Source: Cyclobacteriaceae bacterium
GTDB taxonomy: Bacteria > Bacteroidota > Bacteroidia > Cytophagales > Cyclobacteriaceae
Length of the DNA stretch: 64,000 bases
Reading direction: 5' to 3'
Assembly (NCBI GenBank): GCA_044224375.1
Contig: JBGAKL010000006.1
Span: 198,018 to 262,017 of the forward strand
The notes beneath the pieces were generated by a model. That model made no database searches. It was given only the letters and a program-made list of their open reading frames with translations, and had not been told where the DNA came from. Below, piece after piece: positions 4,757 through 52,959 of the stretch. A program made the position numbers and the translations under genes. The number at the start of each line of letters is the position of its first letter. The first letter of the stretch is position 1.

Positions 4757-5176
4757 ATGTTACAACCGAAGCGTACAAAATTCAGGAAATCACAGAAAGG
4801 CCGTGTTAAGGGTATGGCGACACGCGGACATACAATTGCTTATGGATCATTTGGTTTGAAAGCAGTTGAGATGGGTCTGCTTACTGCCCGCCAGCTCGAA
4901 GCAGCACGTGTTGCTGTAACGCGCGCGATGAAGCGTGAAGGCCAGGTGTGGATCAGGGTGTTTCCTGACAAGCCGGTCACAAGAAAGCCTGCAGAAGTTC
5001 GTATGGGTAAGGGAAAAGGGGCGCCGGAATATTGGGTTGCACCGGTGAAGCCTGGTACCATTTTGTTCGAAGCGGGTGGTGTTACACGCGCCGTTGCGTT
5101 GGAGGCGTTGATGCTTGCTGATGGCAAGCTCCCCATCAAGACAAAATTTGTTGTAAGAAGAGATTACGTAGAATAA
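4757..5176 (+). CDS. rplP: 50S ribosomal protein L16 (uL16)
   Basis: 139 aa, [16 protein letters not shown]... Confidence 0.97.
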
Positions 5177-5184
5177 GCAAGCGT

Positions 5185-5382
5185 ATGAAGAACACATCAG
5201 ATATTAAAGACCTGACCCTCGACGAGCTGAAGGAGAAACTCGGCAGCGAGAAAGAGGCGTTGCGCAAAATGAAATTTGCTCATCAGGTATCAGCCATCGA
5301 AAATCCGATGAAGATAAAAGAGACCCGTAGGCTGATTGCCCGGATCAACACCGCATTGCGCCAAAAAGAAACGCAGAAATAG
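5185..5382 (+). CDS. rpmC: 50S ribosomal protein L29 (uL29)
   Basis: 65 aa helical protein in the conserved slot between rplP and rpsQ. Confidence 0.9.
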
Positions 5383-5389
5383 TAACAGT

Positions 5390-5644
5390 ATGGAAAGGAA
5401 CTTAAGAAAAGAAAGAGTAGGCCGCGTGGTCAGCAATAAAATGCAGAAGACCATCACGATTGCTATCGACCGCAAGGTGAAGCATGCGATCTATGGAAAA
5501 TTCATGAACAAGACCACCAAGCTGATGGCGCATGATGAAAAGAATGAGGCGGGTATTGGCGACACCGTCAGGATCATGGAAACCCGTCCGCTCAGCAAGA
5601 ACAAGCGCTGGAGACTGGTTGAGGTGGTCGAGAAAGCGAAATAA
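5390..5644 (+). CDS. rpsQ: 30S ribosomal protein S17 (uS17)
   Basis: ATG 5390 gives [22 protein letters not shown]... The 5336 start in the ORF track overlaps rpmC and is unlikely. Confidence 0.93.
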
Positions 5645-5670
5645 TTGAGACCGAATAAAGATAGAAAGTT

Positions 5671-6039
5671 ATGATACAGAGCGAATCACGTCTTACAGTG
5701 GCAGACAACAGCGGAGCAAAGGAAGTGCTGGTTGTCCATGTGTTGGGCGGAACCCACAGGCGCTATGCTTCCGTCGGTGACAAGATCGTCGTGACGGTTA
5801 AGTCAGCGATTCCGACCAGCCAAATCAAGAAAGGCACTGTGTCAAGAGCCGTTATCGTGCGCACGAAGAAGGAAGTGAGGAGGAAAGACGGTTCGTATAT
5901 CCGTTTTGAGGACAACGCAGCCGTGCTGCTTACACCCCAGGACGAACCCCGCGGAACCCGCATCTTCGGACCGGTAGCACGCGAGCTTCGCGAGAAGCAG
6001 TTTATGAAGATCATTTCATTGGCCCCCGAAGTACTTTAA
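5671..6039 (+). CDS. rplN: 50S ribosomal protein L14 (uL14)
   Basis: 122 aa, [17 protein letters not shown]... Confidence 0.97.
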
Positions 6040-43644: not shown

Positions 43645-44268
43645 TTAAGGGGATGTGTAGACGAGTACGTACTCCTTTTGTACAAGATACTGCAAATGCA
43701 CAATAGTTTCCTGTTCATTAAACACGATTCGCCCTGTAAGGTAACCACTGGAAGAAAGCTGAAACGGATCGACTTTAAGGTGGTCAGTGAAAAGAAGATT
43801 CTTCTTCCCATAAAACTTATACAATGCTTCCTTTGCGCACCAGTAAATACACAACTTGACAACATCATTTGCAGCGTCGCTCACTTCGCTCTTGGTAAAA
43901 ACACGTGTGGCAATGACTCTTAATTTTTCCTTCGGTTGCTCGAGGTCAATTCCAACTCCGTGTTTGTCATCGACCTGGACCATAACGTACGGATAGGAAT
44001 GGGACAGCGATATATGATGTGAATTTTTCTTGAGGAATGGTTTTCCGAATTCATCCTTTTCCATTCCGAAATAGGAACACCCGAGGTTTTCGAGAAGTTC
44101 ACGCGTGAGAGCCCGGGCTGCAGCCCACTCCAGTCTTTTTTGGGAGTTAACAATTTCAGCGGGACAGGTCTCCATTGCGAGATCGGACAGCTCGCGCTCT
44201 GACTCAGCAATATGCCACACAGCCCATGCCTGCTGCTTACCAAGGGTATGAATTTTAAGAAGTGGCAT
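43645..44268 (-). CDS. 4'-phosphopantetheinyl transferase superfamily protein
   Basis: ATG 44268. ...EFGKPFL...ISLSHS...GIDLE...WCAKEALYKFYG... The stop is 10 nt upstream of the thioredoxin-fold gene. Confidence 0.8.
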   Translation of the reverse strand: MPLLKIHTLGKQQAWAVWHIAESERELSDLAMETCPAEIVNSQKRLEWAAARALTRELLENLGCSYFGMEKDEFGKPFLKKNSHHISLSHSYPYVMVQVDDKHGVGIDLEQPKEKLRVIATRVFTKSEVSDAANDVVKLCIYWCAKEALYKFYGKKNLLFTDHLKVDPFQLSSSGYLTGRIVFNEQETIVHLQYLVQKEYVLVYTSP

Positions 44269-44331
44269 TAGGTTAATCTGGTTGTGTGCGCCAATTTTAT
44301 GTAAAAATATCATTTGGAAACTTATTGAGCG

Positions 44332-45243
44332 ATGGCAAGTATCCTTGTTAAGAAGCTTCAGACATTGACGGGCCATCATGACTGTGTCTATGCGCTCACG
44401 CAGGTCCCCGGTTCACAACATTTTTTCTCCGCGGCGGGCGACGGCATGATCGTCAAATGGGATTTTGCCAACCTGGAAGAAGGCACACTCATCGCCCGGT
44501 TGCCTAATTCAATCTACGCCATACATGCGTTACCGGATACGGATCTCCTTGTCGCGGGTCACAACTATGAAGGCATTCATGTTCTTGATTGGCGAAATAA
44601 AAAGGAGGTAGCATCGTTGAAACTTTCGGATGCTGCGATTTTTGATATCAAATCGATCGGGGAGGACTGCCTGATTGCGTCGGGTGACGGATCGCTGACG
44701 GTAGTTGATTTGCGAACCATGACGGTGAAAAACAAGCTTGTTAATTCAAATCGAAACGCCAGGACGATTGCACCCAATTCTCAGCGCAATGAAGTTGCCG
44801 TCGGGTACAGCGATAATTTCATCCGGGTGTTCGATTCGCAGACCTATCAACTTAAGCATGAATGGCAGGCACATACAAACTCTGTTTTTACCCTTGCCTA
44901 TACCCCTGATTCACGTTTTTTGCTCAGTGGCAGCCGTGATGCCCGCTTAAAAGCGTGGTCTGTGTCCAATAGCTATTCTCTTCACGAGGAAATAAAGGCG
45001 CACCTCTACGCAATCAACCATATCGAATTTAGCCCGGACTCAGAACATTTTGTAACTTGCAGCCTGGATAAGTCAGTCAAAGTCTGGCATACGGCCAGTC
45101 TGACACTGCTGAAGGTCATTGACAAAGCGAGACATGCCGGTCACGGCACTTCAGTGAACAGACTGCTCTGGTCTTCGTTTAATGGACAGTTGATCAGCGC
45201 CAGTGATGACAGGACGATCTCCATTTGGGACGTAATTTTTTAA
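44332..45243 (+). CDS. WD40-repeat beta-propeller protein
   Basis: 303 aa with repeated GH...[WF]D units (TGHHDCVYAL...VKWD, ...AHTNSVFTLAY...LKAWS, ...VKVWH, ...ISIWD). Confidence 0.8.
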   Translation: MASILVKKLQTLTGHHDCVYALTQVPGSQHFFSAAGDGMIVKWDFANLEEGTLIARLPNSIYAIHALPDTDLLVAGHNYEGIHVLDWRNKKEVASLKLSDAAIFDIKSIGEDCLIASGDGSLTVVDLRTMTVKNKLVNSNRNARTIAPNSQRNEVAVGYSDNFIRVFDSQTYQLKHEWQAHTNSVFTLAYTPDSRFLLSGSRDARLKAWSVSNSYSLHEEIKAHLYAINHIEFSPDSEHFVTCSLDKSVKVWHTASLTLLKVIDKARHAGHGTSVNRLLWSSFNGQLISASDDRTISIWDVIF

Positions 45244-46934: not shown

Positions 46935-47456
46935 ATGGACGCTCTGATCGAATACGGAAAGATTCTGATACCTGCTTCGCTGGTCCTCTACGCCATGTAT
47001 CTCATGGTTCGCTCAATGATTTACAAAGAGCTGGAACTGAAAAAGCTGGAAATCAGATCCCGCAGCATCGAGACGATTCTGCCCAACAGGCTCCAGGCGT
47101 ACGAACGCATGTGCCTCTTCCTCGAGCGTATGTCGCCACCCAATCTGCTGCTCAGGCTCAACACGCAAGGTTATTCAGCGCGGGAATTTCATAAGTTGCT
47201 GCTCGATGAGATTCGCAACGAGTATAATCACAATGTATCCCAGCAGATATACATGAGTGAGAACGTATGGAACATGGTAAAGAATGCAAAAGAAGATCTC
47301 ACAATCCTTGTAAATGAAGCATCTGCTGCCATGGGCCCCGAGGCAACCAGCCTCGACCTGGCAAGGAAGATATTCGAGATCACTCTTGAAAAAAAGGTTG
47401 AGCCTATCGGTCACGCCTTGTCTGAACTGAAGAAAGAGATCCAGCAGACTTTCTAA
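46935..47456 (+). CDS. Hypothetical membrane-anchored helical protein
   Basis: ATG 46935. One N-terminal TM segment (ILIPASLVLYAMYLMV); the rest is helical. The stop abuts the dtd start. Confidence 0.5.
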   Translation: MDALIEYGKILIPASLVLYAMYLMVRSMIYKELELKKLEIRSRSIETILPNRLQAYERMCLFLERMSPPNLLLRLNTQGYSAREFHKLLLDEIRNEYNHNVSQQIYMSENVWNMVKNAKEDLTILVNEASAAMGPEATSLDLARKIFEITLEKKVEPIGHALSELKKEIQQTF

Positions 47457-47908
47457 TGATCGCAGTCGTTCAGCGGGTAGGGGAGGCGTCGGTCACGATC
47501 TCCGGCATGGTCAAATCGAAAATAGGAAACGGTCTGCTCGTTTTGGTCGGAATCGAAGATGCCGACAGCGATGAAGACATTCAGTGGCTGTCGGCCAAGA
47601 TCGTCAACCTCAGGATATTCAATGACGAAGCTGGCGTGATGAACGTTAGTGTAAAAGATACCGGTGGCGAAATCCTTGCAGTAAGTCAGTTCACTCTTCA
47701 CGCGAGCACCAAAAAAGGAAACCGCCCCTCGTACATAAAGGCATCCAAGCCTGATATTGCTGTTCCGCTTTACGAAAAATTCATAAAGCAACTTGGATTG
47801 CATCTTGGTAAATCAATCTTAACTGGCGAATTCGGAGCGGACATGCAAGTTTCCCTGGTCAACGACGGACCTGTTACCATCATCATCGACACGAAAAATA
47901 AGCAGTGA
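47456..47908 (+). CDS. dtd: D-aminoacyl-tRNA deacylase
   Basis: 150 aa, MIAVVQRVGEASVTI...GLLVLVGI...SQFTL... Confidence 0.93.
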   Translation: MIAVVQRVGEASVTISGMVKSKIGNGLLVLVGIEDADSDEDIQWLSAKIVNLRIFNDEAGVMNVSVKDTGGEILAVSQFTLHASTKKGNRPSYIKASKPDIAVPLYEKFIKQLGLHLGKSILTGEFGADMQVSLVNDGPVTIIIDTKNKQ

Positions 47909-47956
47909 TATTAGTGTGAACGGCCAAGGGCCAACAGCCAATTTCCAATAGCCGTT

Positions 47957-48895
47957 TTACAAAATCGCCAGCCAGATAAAAACAATATTGGCAATCACAT
48001 ACGCCGCAATCACAATGCGGGCTCCGACACGATTTACACGATCACAAGCTTCTTTCCTTCCCCAGTCATGAAGTTTCAACGCGGAGGCAGATACAACGAG
48101 TGTTGCCAGTATGCCAAAAAATGTCAGTGCATGTAAGGTGTCGACAAGTGTGAATTCTGACGATTCCGGCAGGATTGAATCAATTATATATTTATTACCA
48201 ACGGCAGCAAACAATCCGCCGACCGGCAGGCCGAACCGGGGTTCAAGCTCCCAGGGATTTGGAGTAAAGCCGATAATGGCTATAAGAAATGCTATGTACA
48301 TGCCAATAAAAATTTTGAGGAACAGCCCCCACGCATCGCGCTCAATGTCCATGTCGATATTGAAAGTTGCGAACTCGCTATGTTGTGAAGGCAGTCGGTA
48401 ATCTCCGAATCCGGTTTCATAATTATTCGTCTTCGTGTTCACATTGAAATTCCTGATGTTCCATCCGTCGATCGCCATCATTTTTTCATATCGACTACCA
48501 TCAAAATCAGGTTTAAAAACCAAGCTGCTTTTATCAAAAAGCGTATTCTCGATCTGCAGGTGTAAATGTTGGGAGTCAAAGGGAAAATCGTCGACTTTCC
48601 AGCTTTCTTTCATCGTGCATTTCATCTTCATAATCACCCATGCTTTGCCGTCGATACTATCGGTCATGATCTCGGGTGGATCGATGCTCTTTGCATTAGG
48701 AATATCCAGTTGTTTGCTGAAATCAAATTCGGCGTTATCATACAAGAACCAAAGCCAGAACCTGATTGTGTATTCTTTATCGTGAAAATTGATATCGTGC
48801 ACACTGATCACATACGCACCCACCTTGACCGTGTCCGGCTGTGCGGTCAAACGGAACGCGGTAAAAACAAACAGTAGGCAAATAAGCTGTTTCAC
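47957..48895 (-). CDS. Prokaryotic pentameric ligand-gated ion channel (Cys-loop receptor superfamily) homologue, paralogue 1
   Basis: 312 aa with a signal peptide and a beta-rich ectodomain carrying FPFDSQHLHL (compare YPFDSQTLHI in GLIC) and GWNIRNF. Four TM segments follow, with LP-x-S/T after M2 and a short M3-M4 loop. Confidence 0.75.
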   Translation of the reverse strand: MKQLICLLFVFTAFRLTAQPDTVKVGAYVISVHDINFHDKEYTIRFWLWFLYDNAEFDFSKQLDIPNAKSIDPPEIMTDSIDGKAWVIMKMKCTMKESWKVDDFPFDSQHLHLQIENTLFDKSSLVFKPDFDGSRYEKMMAIDGWNIRNFNVNTKTNNYETGFGDYRLPSQHSEFATFNIDMDIERDAWGLFLKIFIGMYIAFLIAIIGFTPNPWELEPRFGLPVGGLFAAVGNKYIIDSILPESSEFTLVDTLHALTFFGILATLVVSASALKLHDWGRKEACDRVNRVGARIVIAAYVIANIVFIWLAIL

Positions 48896-48898
48896 AGA

Positions 48899-49834
48899 TC
48901 AGGCTGACGCTATATAATAAATATTTAGAATAACGAAGACCCCCGCCACGATCCACGCTCCGATCCTGTCGGCCTTCAGGCAAGCGTCTTTGTTGCCGGC
49001 ATTGTAATATTTGAGTGAGATCGCCGAAACAGCGAGCACAGAAAGAATGCCGAGAAAAGTGATGCTGTGCAACGTGTCGACTAAGCTGAACTCGGGCGAT
49101 TCGGGTAAGAGCGAATCAATGATGTACTTGTTACCGACAGCTGCAAACAACCCTCCGACTGGAAGTCCGAACCTTGGCTCTAATTCCCATGGGAAAGAGA
49201 CGAAGCTGATGAGTGCGATCAGGAAAGCGATGTACATCCCGATAAATATTTTCGCGAACAACCCCCAGGCATCTCGTTCGATGCTCATATCGATCTTGAA
49301 TGTGGAAAAGGTCTGCGAATCATGCCCACGGCGTGGATCGCCGAAGCCCGTTCCATAGTGCGTGGTGTCTGAAGAAACTTTGAATTCAGTGATCCTCCAG
49401 CCGTCAAGGCCTTCAATGTCGTCGAATCTGGAGTGACGTGTATCGGGTTTAAAGATCAGCGCACGGCTGTCAAAGACGGAGTTCTCTACCCGCACGCGAA
49501 GGTGCTGTTTGTCGAAAGGGAAATTATGAACCACCCAGCTTTCCTTCATCACGCATTTCATTTTCATCTGTACCCACTTCTTTCCACCTACGGTGTCAGT
49601 CACCATTGTGGGTGGATCGATCTCCTTGGCGTTGGGAATATCAAGCTGACTGTAAAAATCAAAATCCGGGTTGCTGTAAAGGAACCACAGCCAATAACGG
49701 ATCGTGTATTCCTTGTCATGAAAATTGATGTCGTGGACGCTGATAATGTAGGCACCGGCCTTGACGGTATCTGGCTGCGCGTGTGTGACGTAAAGAGGAA
49801 GGGCGAAAAGCAGGGTCAGTAAAAAACGTTTCAT
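48899..49834 (-). CDS. Prokaryotic pentameric ligand-gated ion channel homologue, paralogue 2
   Basis: 311 aa with the same architecture (FPFDKQHLRV, GWRITEF). M1-M3 are almost identical to paralogue 1. A 3-nt spacer separates it from the downstream paralogue. Confidence 0.75.
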   Translation of the reverse strand: MKRFLLTLLFALPLYVTHAQPDTVKAGAYIISVHDINFHDKEYTIRYWLWFLYSNPDFDFYSQLDIPNAKEIDPPTMVTDTVGGKKWVQMKMKCVMKESWVVHNFPFDKQHLRVRVENSVFDSRALIFKPDTRHSRFDDIEGLDGWRITEFKVSSDTTHYGTGFGDPRRGHDSQTFSTFKIDMSIERDAWGLFAKIFIGMYIAFLIALISFVSFPWELEPRFGLPVGGLFAAVGNKYIIDSLLPESPEFSLVDTLHSITFLGILSVLAVSAISLKYYNAGNKDACLKADRIGAWIVAGVFVILNIYYIASA

Positions 49835-49905
49835 TGAGGGGTGGAATATCTGATCAAGTTAACAGTCCTGATCAAATCTTCCACCTTTGTTTCCTCAAAT
49901 GATTG

Positions 49906-52332
49906 CTATTTCGCGTCTATTTTGGCCTTCATAGGGTCGTTTCCCTTCACGTACGTTTCGAGCATGTTATCCATTTCCCACAACGTATGCATGATCGATT
50001 CCTTGGCGCGATACCCGTGACTTTCATAGGGCAACAAAACGTAGCGGGCCGTACCTCCGTGACCTTTGATAGCATTGTAAAAACGTTCGGTCTGAATAGG
50101 GAAGGTTCCCGAATTATTGTCTGCCTCACCATGAACAAGCAGGATCGGTGTTTTTATTTTATCTGCATACGAGAAAGGTGACATCTTGAAATACACTTCC
50201 GGCGCTTCCCAGTAAGTGCGCTCCTCCTGTTGGAATCCAAATGGGGTAAGGGTACGATTGTATGCACCGCTTCGTGCAATACCTGCCTTGAACAAATCGG
50301 AATGTGCAAGGAGGTTTGCAGTCATGAAAGCACCATAGCTATGTCCACCGACGCCGACACGCTTGGGATCAACGTATCCAAGTGACGCCCCATAATCGAT
50401 CGCCGCTTTCGCACTGGAAACAAGCTGCTCAATATAAGTATCATTGGGCTCGTTGTCGCCTTCCCCAACGATCGGGATTGAGGCATTGTCGAGAATGGCG
50501 TAACCACGAACAACCCAATAGATGGCCGTTCCCCAGCTCAGTCGTGTGAATGAGTAAGGCGATCCCTTTACCTGCCCAGCATTGCCTTTGGATTTGAACT
50601 CTGCCGGATATGCCCAAAGGAAAGTCGGCAACGGCCCCATCTCCTTTTTATATCCGGGCGGAAGGTAAAGGTCAGCCGTCAGATCGACGCCATCTGGCCG
50701 CTTGTACTTCAATACCTGTTTCTTTACATCCTTGATCTGAGGATAAGGATGTGGAAACGTCGTCAGCTGAGTAAGATTTTTTGATCCGGCAGTCCTGAGA
50801 AAATAATTGGGATTGTCGTTCTGAGATTCGCGAGACGTGATAAATGTAACTTTCTTTGGGTCGATAACACTGACTACGACTTCGTAGAATGGCGCTTCAC
50901 TTCTCCACAAACGCGACGTCTTACCGCTATTGAGATCAAGCTTGTCGAGGAAAGGTCTGTCACCTTCCGGGGATGAGCCAGGGCCCGCAAGCAAGATGCT
51001 ATTATCCTGGATTGCCATCACGTTTCTTCCGTATTGATTCGTGGTCGTTATCACATCACCAGGGTTCGAATACACGTCTTCGTAAGAACGGTCGAACAGC
51101 GTTTTCTTTTTTGACGGGTTTGATGGGTCGATTTGATATGTCCTGACTTTGCGATCATTCCACCAGCGTTCATGCACTAATGCCGTCTTATCATTGCCCC
51201 ATAAAATAGAAGTGTACCGAAGTGGGAGACTGATCAACTCTTCTGGTGTGGCGCTGAAGGGCGCTGCGAGCTGAAACACCTTATCACGTATGCTCGTCTT
51301 GACTTTAGGGTCGCCACCGTCCTGAGCTTCTGCCCAGTAAACTGTTGCTGGTTGATCCGACCTCCAACCATGATTGCGTGGACCCTTGATGGCCGCACTG
51401 AAACCTACAGGCACGTTATCGGAAAGTGGAATGTCCGTCAACGTCTTTATAACGTTGCCATTCAGATCCAGCACCTGAACGAGGTGCGGAAATAACTCTT
51501 CGGGAACAAGGTAAGAATATGGTTTATGTATTACTTCCGTCAAGATCATGTTTCCGTCCGGTGAAGGATTTTGAGAAGCGAACACCCCAGGCTGACCAAT
51601 GGGTTTCTCCACGCCATCCAGCGAGATTGAGTATAGCTGCGATGTACAGTAAAAATCGAAGGCCGCCTCATCGTATTGATTCTTCAAAAGGTCTTGATAG
51701 GTACGTGCGGCCGCTTTCTTTCCGAGATTCTCTTCCGTCACGGGTCCGGCAGGAACCCTTGATTTCTCGGGTAGTTTTTTCCCGTCCACGACAGCGAGAA
51801 ATAGTATCTGGTTTGAGTTTGGAAGCCATGATACCGGATTCGCATTCGTGTTGTTGATTTTCTTTTTAGTCAGTATCCGTGCGTTGGCAGTTGTGATGTC
51901 GACCAACCACAGCTCTATGTGGTCCGGATAACTTTGAAGGAACGTAGCTTTTTTGCCATCAGGAGAAAAGCCAAAACGGCTCATTTGTAGGGGCGATGGA
52001 AGTCCTTTGACAGTATACTCTTTCAGGTCTTTGAGATTTTTAAATTTCAGTCCGACAGAATAGTTCTCGCGGCTCGGGCCGAAATTTTCAGGGTTGATTC
52101 GTAAGCCTGCAATTCTAAGTTCTGGGCGCGAAAGTTCTTCGATGCTTGGATAGTCAGATCGATCCATCAAGGCCATCCAGTTCTTATCAGGCGAAATGAC
52201 CACGGCTGGCGTGAGCGGCGCTTCAAGCAACTTGATGATATCATCCGGAGGTCTTTGATAGCCGGTTTTGTCCTGAGAAAAGGACGGAACAAGCGCAAGT
52301 ATTAAACAAAACGAGCAAATAACTTTTTTCAT
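49906..52332 (-). CDS. S9-family serine peptidase (prolyl oligopeptidase / dipeptidyl-peptidase type) with an N-terminal beta-propeller
   Basis: 808 aa with a signal peptide. Catalytic context ...GVGGHSYGAFM..., ...VHGEADNN..., ...ESHGY... Confidence 0.88.
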   Translation of the reverse strand: MKKVICSFCLILALVPSFSQDKTGYQRPPDDIIKLLEAPLTPAVVISPDKNWMALMDRSDYPSIEELSRPELRIAGLRINPENFGPSRENYSVGLKFKNLKDLKEYTVKGLPSPLQMSRFGFSPDGKKATFLQSYPDHIELWLVDITTANARILTKKKINNTNANPVSWLPNSNQILFLAVVDGKKLPEKSRVPAGPVTEENLGKKAAARTYQDLLKNQYDEAAFDFYCTSQLYSISLDGVEKPIGQPGVFASQNPSPDGNMILTEVIHKPYSYLVPEELFPHLVQVLDLNGNVIKTLTDIPLSDNVPVGFSAAIKGPRNHGWRSDQPATVYWAEAQDGGDPKVKTSIRDKVFQLAAPFSATPEELISLPLRYTSILWGNDKTALVHERWWNDRKVRTYQIDPSNPSKKKTLFDRSYEDVYSNPGDVITTTNQYGRNVMAIQDNSILLAGPGSSPEGDRPFLDKLDLNSGKTSRLWRSEAPFYEVVVSVIDPKKVTFITSRESQNDNPNYFLRTAGSKNLTQLTTFPHPYPQIKDVKKQVLKYKRPDGVDLTADLYLPPGYKKEMGPLPTFLWAYPAEFKSKGNAGQVKGSPYSFTRLSWGTAIYWVVRGYAILDNASIPIVGEGDNEPNDTYIEQLVSSAKAAIDYGASLGYVDPKRVGVGGHSYGAFMTANLLAHSDLFKAGIARSGAYNRTLTPFGFQQEERTYWEAPEVYFKMSPFSYADKIKTPILLVHGEADNNSGTFPIQTERFYNAIKGHGGTARYVLLPYESHGYRAKESIMHTLWEMDNMLETYVKGNDPMKAKIDAK

Positions 52333-52509: not shown

Positions 52510-52959
52510 ATGTACCCAACCCTCCTTATTACCCATTCGCTGCTCAGGCAATTCGTCCTTATCTTTTTGATCATCGTTGTTGTAAAGACATTCCTCGGAT
52601 ATTCAAATAAGAGTGCCTTTACCAAGACTGATAACATGCTTGGTCTCTCTTTATTCTCGTTGACACACACACAACTTCTCCTGGGACTAATACTTTATTT
52701 TGTTAGTCCGTTTGTCCAATTCAGTGGTAGTTCCATGAAAGACCCGACATTACGCTATTGGACCGTGGAGCACATCGTCACTATGCTGGTCGCTGTTGGC
52801 TTAATAACCGCGGCAAGGACTACCTCAAAAAAAATGACTGATCCAGTCGCGAAGCACAAAAGGATGTTCATCTTAAATACGATTGCATTGGTGCTTATAT
52901 TGATAGGTATCGCTTTAAGCAAACGCGGATTCTTGCCGGCACCGCGAGTTTCCGGATAA
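52510..52959 (+). CDS. Hypothetical four-TM membrane protein
   Basis: 149 aa with four hydrophobic segments. No recognisable motif. Confidence 0.5.
   Translation: MYPTLLITHSLLRQFVLIFLIIVVVKTFLGYSNKSAFTKTDNMLGLSLFSLTHTQLLLGLILYFVSPFVQFSGSSMKDPTLRYWTVEHIVTMLVAVGLITAARTTSKKMTDPVAKHKRMFILNTIALVLILIGIALSKRGFLPAPRVSG

Follow-up and report, generated by a model that had tools for sequence, protein, structure and literature searches.

A conserved tandem pair of pentameric ligand-gated ion channel genes in one Cyclobacteriaceae-like lineage, a candidate bacterial heteromeric receptor

Background

The bacterial pLGICs (pentameric ligand-gated ion channels) GLIC and ELIC have been the structural workhorses for the neurotransmitter receptors, and their native roles and ligands are mostly obscure. 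GLIC, from Gloeobacter violaceus (PDB 3EAM), is proton-gated; ELIC, from Dickeya/Erwinia, is gated by amines and GABA; ELIC, sTeLIC and DeCLIC are all homopentamers, and to our knowledge none of these last three has been reported as a tandem paralogue pair. Bacterial pLGICs have been regarded as homopentamers (Tasneem et al. 2004, PMC549065), and nothing relevant to tandem or heteromeric bacterial pLGICs, or to the clade described here, was found in the literature. Described here are two adjacent genes, A and B, in a stretch of 64,000 nucleotides (nt) from a Cyclobacteriaceae bacterium (contig JBGAKL010000006.1, positions 198,018 to 262,017 of the forward strand; referred to below as the window, with all coordinates counted from its first letter). 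The pLGIC family itself is already known; what is rare within the sampled family is a conserved and apparently coupled pair such as this one, which its sequences make a reasonable candidate for a bacterial heteromeric pLGIC.

The gene pair and its nearest described relatives

As originally predicted, two neighbouring open reading frames (ORFs) of 311 and 312 amino acids (aa), 3 nt apart, lie on the same strand, which is the minus strand of the window:

48899..49834, minus strand: gene A, the upstream paralogue, a pLGIC subunit of 311 aa with an ATG start
47957..48895, minus strand: gene B, the downstream paralogue and ancestral-like copy, a pLGIC subunit of 312 aa with a GTG start
48896..48898, minus strand: the A-B spacer, 3 nt from A's TGA stop to B's GTG start

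The TGA stop of A is followed by 'tct' and then directly by the GTG of B, for which the equivalent start codon in the orthologues is ATG. Over their full length the two proteins are 64% identical (BLASTP, E 3e-151), so that their likeness is far beyond chance. The motifs on which the original prediction was built are all present in the translations, apart from the beta1 motif of A, which reads AGAY and not VGAY. The Cys-loop motif is FPFDKQHL in A and FPFDSQHL in B; the GW-x-I-x-x-F strand is DGWRITEF in A and DGWNIRNF in B; the motif assigned to the second membrane helix, M2, is RFGLPVGGLFAAVGNKYIIDS[LI]LPES; and the motifs proposed as ligand loops are SSDTTHYGTGFGDPRRGHDSQTF in A and NTKTNNYETGFGDYRLPSQHSEF in B.

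The best match to the pair in both sequence and fold is GLIC, but at 15-16% identity. Like GLIC, A and B have about 310 aa, no N-terminal accessory domain, an M3-M4 link of few residues and no Cys-loop disulfide; they also have in common with it the Pro-loop [F/Y]PFD-x-Q, the beta9 Trp, the pre-M1 Arg, the M2-M3 Pro, and an acidic residue at -2' and at 19'. They differ from it in having Phe for Ile at 9', Arg for Asn at 0', Gly for Pro at the M1 kink, Gly at 2', 6' and 13' and Pro at 4', and in an ectodomain about 25 residues shorter with a loop C hairpin 9 residues longer. ELIC, sTeLIC and DeCLIC have the same core fold as A and B and are far more distant from them in sequence than GLIC is; ELIC chains match single sequences of the pair more weakly (E 0.09-0.4), and DeCLIC, as it has been described, carries an extra N-terminal domain of which A and B have no counterpart.

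The animal heteromeric pLGICs (glycine receptor (GlyR) alpha/beta, GABA-A and nicotinic receptors) offer a different kind of comparison, being assembled from paralogous subunits with a common pore helix and different binding interfaces. GlyR chains gave the highest TM-scores for the model of A (0.80-0.82), and the start of M2 in A and B, R-F-G-L, is like the R-V-G-L of GlyR. Unlike A and B, the animal receptors have a Cys-loop disulfide, an N-terminal helix, long M3-M4 loops, and subunit genes that lie outside operons.

Assignment to the pLGIC superfamily

It is near certain that A and B are subunits of the pLGIC (Pro-loop/Cys-loop) superfamily, since profiles, fold and signature residues give three independent lines of evidence for it. 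What weighs against this assignment is the behaviour of the single sequences in model searches: with Pfam Neur_chan_LBD (PF02931) A scores 16.5 and B 24 bits, under a cutoff of 26; neither matches Neur_chan_memb (PF02932); and the NCBIfam model NF033918 LGIC_1, whose cutoff is 500 bits, gives them 28.4 and 35.8 bits. A and B come from a pLGIC subfamily other than LGIC_1. The Pfam pLGIC models were built mostly on animal receptors, and of 109 relatives of the pair, 57 reach E<=1e-3 with the Pfam LBD model and a single one does so with the membrane model.

Searches of the PDB chains grow steadily stronger with the depth of the query. Single sequences find GLIC at E 2e-3 (phmmer), a profile of 67 close homologues finds it at E 6e-9 to 1e-7, and a 109-sequence profile (322 positions, including 107 representatives 24-45% identical to B) aligns with it from beta1 to M4, positions 27-317 against 13-312, at E 6e-30. 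AlphaFold2 (AF2) models of both proteins show a beta-sandwich followed by four helices, as had been predicted; the mean local confidence (pLDDT) is 91.8 for A, with a predicted TM-score (pTM) of 0.79, from a deeper alignment, and 78.4 for B. When these models were compared with the PDB by Foldseek, the top matches were pLGICs only, with E 2e-19 to 5e-21 and whole-chain TM-scores of 0.75-0.82; B matches GLIC at E 2e-19 with a TM-score of 0.75, and A matches GLIC at 0.77 and GlyR alpha3 at 0.82, with GABA-A receptors also among the top matches. A lack of significant pLGIC HMM matches, which the original prediction had named as its refutation, comes close to being the case for the single sequences; profile and fold together override their sub-threshold scores, and the Pfam thresholds are a matter of detection and not of structure. 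The homology claimed in the original prediction, which those sequences do not carry past the Pfam cutoff, is thus upheld by the deep family profile, by the structural matches and by the signature residues described below.

Domain architecture and signature residues

The domain boundaries in the two proteins are as follows:

A: signal peptide 1-19; periplasmic beta-sandwich about 20-187; M1 189-209; M2 218-240; M3 251-278; M4 282-310
B: signal peptide 1-19; ectodomain 20-186; M1 189-208; M2 222-241; M3 250-277; M4 281-311

In the AF2 model of A the strands run from 22 to 187 and are followed by helices at 189-209, 218-240, 251-278 and 282-310, with an analogous arrangement in B; the M3-M4 loop, predicted to be very short, is a link of 3 residues in both models. 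The segments that carry the diagnostic residues are these:

49511..49522, minus strand: Pro-loop (beta6-beta7) FPFD of A, F105-D108, which aligns with GLIC Y119-P120-F121-D122
48575..48586, minus strand: Pro-loop FPFD of B, F104-D107, which fits the superfamily [F/Y]PxD (PMC4795631, Table 1)
49103..49174, minus strand: M2 of A and the M2-M3 proline, R221-P244, RFGLPVGGLFAAVGNKYIIDSLLP, 95% identical to B, with a helix pLDDT of 94-97
48167..48238, minus strand: M2 of B, R220 (0') to P243 (23'), in the register given by HMMER alignments to GLIC
48380..48421, minus strand: loop C of B together with the end of beta9, Y159-H172; it bears the family motif Y-x-T-x-[FY]-G-D, and A and B differ here more than in any other segment

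The pre-M1 Arg is the salt-bridge partner of the Pro-loop Asp in this superfamily, and both residues are almost invariant among the 109 family representatives: numbered as in B, R186, which aligns with GLIC R192, is found in 108/109 and D107 in 103/109, with the Pro-loop Pro, P105, in all 109. The beta9 Trp W145, aligned with GLIC W160, is present in 102/109, the M2-M3 Pro P243, aligned with GLIC P247, in 94/109, the basic Arg at 0' (R220) in 99/109, and Phe at the hydrophobic 9' position (F229) in 104/109. In the signature table for the superfamily, [F/Y]-P-x-D stands at the beta6-beta7 tip with its Pro 100% conserved (Jaiteh et al. 2016, PMC4795631). At the M1 kink both proteins have Gly instead of Pro, Gly198 of B and Gly199 of A aligning with GLIC P204, and Gly is found there in 92/109 representatives; across the superfamily this position is Pro in 77% and Gly in 5% of members, and 9' is Phe in 13% (PMC4795631). 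The M1 Gly is a trait of the clade and a documented minority substitution, and no ground for excluding it from the pLGICs. No Cys-loop disulfide is indicated, as the single nearby Cys (C93 in B, C94 in A) is without a partner 13-15 residues downstream; all prokaryotic members are without the Cys-loop cysteine pair (PMC4795631).

The prediction that the ectodomain would prove shorter than that of GLIC was correct, at about 167 against 192 residues. Two parts of GLIC have no counterpart in the clade: residues 1-13 and, between beta2 and beta4, a stretch of 21 residues (53-73) to which the 'IWIP' loop A region belongs. The clade's own beta9-beta10 hairpin/loop C is 9 residues longer and its M1-M2 segment 2 residues longer. 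Its loop C carries the motif Y-x-T-x-[FY]-G-D-P, with Y159 conserved in 93/109, T161 in 84/109, G164 in 102/109 and D165 in 78/109. The M2 consensus is R-F-G-L-x-V-G-x-L-F-A-A-V-G-N-K-Y, with Gly at 6' in 92/109 and mostly Gly at 2' and 13'; in B itself the residues are 2'G, 4'P, 6'G, 9'F, 13'G, 16'Y and 19'D, preceded by E216 and E218 at -4' and -2'.

From this architecture a working mechanism may be proposed. A cleavable signal peptide would export each protein, whose compact beta-sandwich sensor would then lie in the periplasm and whose four helices would sit in the inner membrane; M2 would line the pore that five such subunits enclose. Loop C would cover the sites at the subunit interfaces where a periplasmic stimulus is sensed, and the Pro-loop FPFD, the pre-M1 Arg and the M2-M3 loop would relay the signal to a hydrophobic gate, the ring of Phe at 9', which would open. 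Acidic rings at -2'/-4', 19' and 24' (in B, E216 and E218 before R220, and D239 (19') and E244 (24') after it) would make a cation-selective pore the likelier one. An acidic residue is present at -2' in 65/109 and at 19' in 82/109 family members, and a cation-selective pore is predicted with moderate confidence because the acidic -2' and 19' positions resemble those of GLIC, which is cation-selective, and are unlike the P-A-R and basic outer ring (19'/24') of the anion-selective receptors. Against it stand the Pro at -1' beside the Arg at 0', which recalls the anionic 'PAR', and the fact that the best TM-scores are to glycine receptors, both of which make anion selectivity possible.

The stimulus itself might be not an organic ligand but periplasmic protons or divalent cations, with the difference between A and B tuning the set-point; we consider this rather unlikely, though several features point in its direction. 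The loop C motif, with its acidic residue, is conserved clade-wide at 24-45% identity, which would be unusual for a ligand-specific loop; the family is without the stretch that bears the loop A 'WxP' motif of GLIC; and its nearest solved relatives are the proton-gated GLIC structures. GLIC, sTeLIC and DeCLIC are described as being gated by pH or Ca2+. The neighbourhoods, however, show no ion-homeostasis theme, save for one CDF transporter beside a distant relative, and such gating concerns the stimulus alone and would be compatible with either mode of assembly considered below.

The wider clade and the history of the pair

An exhaustive HMMER search with B through 1.84 billion cluster representatives (clusters at 50% identity) matched 2,064 clusters when the limit was set at E<=1e-3; 1,138 of them passed E<=1e-10, and 286 passed E<=1e-30. 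These form a large clade of their own, because GLIC-like proteins would not reach such thresholds. Every member that can be placed by its name or by marker genes belongs to Bacteroidota; the names are those of Cytophagales, Cytophagaceae, Ohtaekwangia and Chryseolinea, and other loci have Por_Secre_tail or GldH neighbours. RefSeq/UniRef already gives some members the name 'ligand-gated ion channel'.

Of 80 related loci, taken from species-representative genomes that are all Cytophagales, 16 carry the A-B tandem, with A first and B second in every case; together with the window this makes 17 genomes. The other 64 loci have a single gene, 64-75% identical to B and 57-67% identical to A; in Ohtaekwangia, Chryseolinea and Pseudochryseolinea the orthologues present as one copy, such as WP_112748187.1, which is named 'ligand-gated ion channel', are likewise 64-75% identical to B, have the same synteny as the pair (a 149-aa membrane protein, dtd and DUF7935), and are accompanied by no A-type paralogue. 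The 80 metagenomic loci, 58-80% identical to B (the scan, with a 25-sequence alignment, returned close relatives only), all lack a second copy, as do the seven distant relatives (36-51% identity), and among about 160 loci there was no A without B. The suggestion that a tandem pair is unusual therefore holds within the sampled family, where it marks one clade of 17 genomes among about 167 loci, the remaining 150 or so having one B-like copy.

In neighbour-joining (NJ) trees the A sequences are monophyletic in 100/100 bootstraps; the same holds for B from the tandem genomes, grouped with two further loci, L003 and L008, the latter cut by a contig end. L003 (JANXYC010000025.1, about 4764-5927), which falls inside the tandem clade, has B alone, with 237 nt between the peptidase gene and B, and A has apparently been lost there secondarily. 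The simplest reading of these trees and distributions is that A and B arose by a lineage-specific tandem duplication at the base of one Cyclobacteriaceae-like lineage. B would then have retained the ancestral sequence, and A would have undergone a burst of divergence, for the most part in beta7-beta10, loop C, the M2-M3 loop, M3 and M4, before being frozen by purifying selection. Distances agree in direction: from the single copies they are 0.54 to A and 0.47 to B, and within the clade 0.28 for A and 0.32 for B. One point weighs against this history. The NJ position of A is unstable and mostly deep, A being sister to B in 6/100 bootstraps; this could mean an older duplication with many losses instead of a burst of change in A, or may be a matter of long-branch attraction.

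Both copies are under strong purifying selection, to judge from ratios of nonsynonymous to synonymous substitution (dN/dS) of about 0.03 for A and about 0.05 for B in pairs with unsaturated dS. These values bear on a further possibility, namely that the pair is biologically meaningless, A being a redundant or decaying duplicate or the identity of A and B the product of recent gene conversion; this must be called very improbable and is effectively refuted. A does lie on a long branch, with the greater distance to the single copies given above, and it was lost in L003, but it is intact in 17 genomes, its distance within the clade is below that of B, and it keeps every signature residue of the superfamily. 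The low dN/dS of both copies, 0.03-0.05, rules out A as a pseudogene or relaxed duplicate. Synonymous differences between A and B have reached saturation along the whole length (proportion of synonymous differences, pS, 0.7-1.0), even where the proteins are 90-95% identical, which rules out gene conversion as the source of the near-identical beta1-beta2, M1 and M2 segments; the identity of those segments reflects selection on the protein.

Divergence between A and B and their possible assembly

The two proteins differ very unevenly along their length, with the following identities:

beta1-beta2: 91%
M1: 90%
M2: 95%
beta7: 50%
beta7-beta8: 43%
beta9: 33%
loop C: 55%
M3: 61%
M4: 44%

The near-identity from M1 through M3 noted by eye in the original prediction accordingly stands for M1 and M2 and fails for M3, and the divergence that it placed in the putative ligand loops and M4 is there in beta7, beta7-beta8, beta9, loop C and M4. 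Changes fixed in A at positions where B agrees with the single copies are Q114R, I115V, G133H, A141G, S246P, T249S and D277N, with S246P and T249S in the M2-M3 coupling loop. The loop C consensus of A is S-x-D-T-T-R/H-Y-G-T-G-F-G-D-P-R-x-G-H-D-S-Q-T-F; loop C conservation is 0.92 among A orthologues, 0.79 among B orthologues and 0.68 among single copies, a pattern that would be expected if A had gained a new specific binding or gating face on the ancestral pore.

The spacing of the two genes is also conserved. It lies between -4 and +5 nt in 15/15 tandem loci measured, these being the loci where both starts could be placed, and in 7 of them the genes overlap by 4 nt, which suggests translational coupling. 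According to Huber et al. (2023, PMC10666635), termination-reinitiation requires overlaps or very short gaps, and such spacing is enriched where the genes encode subunits of a heteromeric complex; in the account of Marchant et al. (2019, PMC6711710) duplicated homomers often go on forming heteromers. It is proposed that both genes would be read from one message with coupled translation, and that A and B would co-assemble into mixed pentamers to which A brings a new binding or gating face. Co-assembly appears the most likely outcome because of descent from a homomer, presumed constant co-expression, and the near-identity of M1, M2 and beta1-beta2, and we think it somewhat probable that the two are able to form heteromers and do occur as mixed pentamers; that they form an obligate or preferred heteropentamer is doubtful. 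The conserved coupling of A with B favours a heteromer, as do the lack of any A-only locus and the finding that B alone represents both the ancestral state and the state of L003.

Several considerations pull the other way. Short spacing is common also between operon genes whose products have no complex in common, tandem duplicates are adjacent by origin, and a conserved A-specific loop C would equally fit a separate homopentamer with its own ligand. One operon might thus encode two sensors, two independent homopentamers of which that of A has a different ligand or stimulus specificity; this is a possibility to be taken seriously, if not one on which we would bet. The divergence is concentrated in segments that form the agonist site of known pLGICs, with the pore kept, the higher conservation of loop C in A than in B points the same way, as do the first six of the seven A-specific fixed changes listed above, and the characterised prokaryotic pLGICs have all been treated as homopentamers (Tasneem et al. 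2004, PMC549065). On the other hand, A is never found without B in about 160 loci and their coupled translation appears conserved, the near-identical beta1-beta2, M1 and M2 leave no obvious barrier to mixing, and co-expressed paralogues of homomers usually still heteromerise, again as reported in PMC6711710.

Genomic neighbourhood and expression

A short conserved motif lies ahead of the pair:

49855..49862, minus strand: TTAACTTG, an instance of the conserved motif TAAyTTn, 20 nt upstream of the ATG of A

The TAAyTTn motif recurs 20-25 nt upstream of the start of A in 10/12 tandem loci. It resembles the Bacteroidetes -7 box, TAnnTTTG, and is a possible promoter box of that type, which suggests that the pair has its own promoter, independent of the S9 peptidase gene upstream. 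A scan for sigma-70-type promoters and terminators gave sites no more frequent than in shuffled sequence; Bacteroidota promoters are of a different type from sigma-70. In the 64-kb window no tRNA gene was found and no Rfam family reached its gathering threshold.

Across Cytophagales the locus sits in a housekeeping synteny of dtd, DUF7935, HesB, folB, a DivIVA-like gene and a WD40 gene. The D-Tyr-tRNA deacylase gene (dtd, 47456..47908, plus strand) lies downstream in convergent orientation in 53/80 loci, and the 48 nt between the convergent ends of B and dtd (47909..47956) hold an imperfect inverted repeat, AACGGC...GCCGTT, which might be a shared terminator, although the consensus terminator scan did not call it. 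Further off, a 244-aa gene (43645..44379, minus strand) and a 303-aa WD40-like gene (44332..45243, plus strand) overlap by 48 nt at the 5' ends of their ORFs, and one of the two longest-ORF starts is probably placed too far upstream.

An 808-aa S9-family (prolyl oligopeptidase-like) peptidase with a signal-like N-terminal segment is encoded at 49906..52332 on the minus strand; its gene ends 71 nt before A on the same strand, and it is directly upstream in 27/80 loci, tandem and single-copy alike. The position of a periplasmic peptidase beside a sensor channel of the periplasm could point to peptides or amino acids as ligands, but the association is inconsistent, and because the peptidase is present at 27/80 loci it has not been counted as part of the channel system. 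The most persistent neighbour of the channel is a 149-aa multi-pass membrane protein (52510..52959, plus strand; weak DUF996 match, 21 bits against a cutoff of 31), which is upstream and divergent in 71/80 loci and directly adjoins the channel gene wherever the S9 peptidase is absent; either a functional link or plain synteny would account for this.

The neighbourhoods of the Cytophagales locus and of the seven distant relatives have no recurrent partner that would hint at a ligand. Beside the distant relatives lie unrelated genes: a racemase and an amine oxidase, a CDF transporter, RND pumps, XdhC and others. At one of these loci (L162, 4180-7338; 38% identical) the channel gene stands 54 nt after an Asp/Glu racemase gene and 20 nt before a gene for an amine-oxidase/DAO-type flavoprotein, all three on one strand, an arrangement seen once that could be an amino-acid-related operon. 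At another (L165, 5001-6884; 46% identical) a gene for a CDF-family cation-efflux transporter follows 22 nt downstream on the same strand.

Significance

The clade to which A and B belong is large and unstudied, and could be of use in structural work because of its compact ectodomain and its distinctive pore, in which the gate at 9' is Phe, positions 2', 6' and 13' are Gly, and the M1 Pro has given way to Gly. The pair also amounts to a natural experiment, with one lineage that has the coupled pair and sister lineages that have the single ancestral gene. If A and B stay separate, this would be merely a duplicated sensor and an ordinary finding. If they form a heteropentamer, it would be the first prokaryotic pLGIC made from two different subunits, and one of recent origin, with single-copy homomeric orthologues persisting in sister genera; if they do co-assemble, the family would offer a natural before-and-after system for the evolution of a receptor from homomer to heteromer, with the first step still visible.

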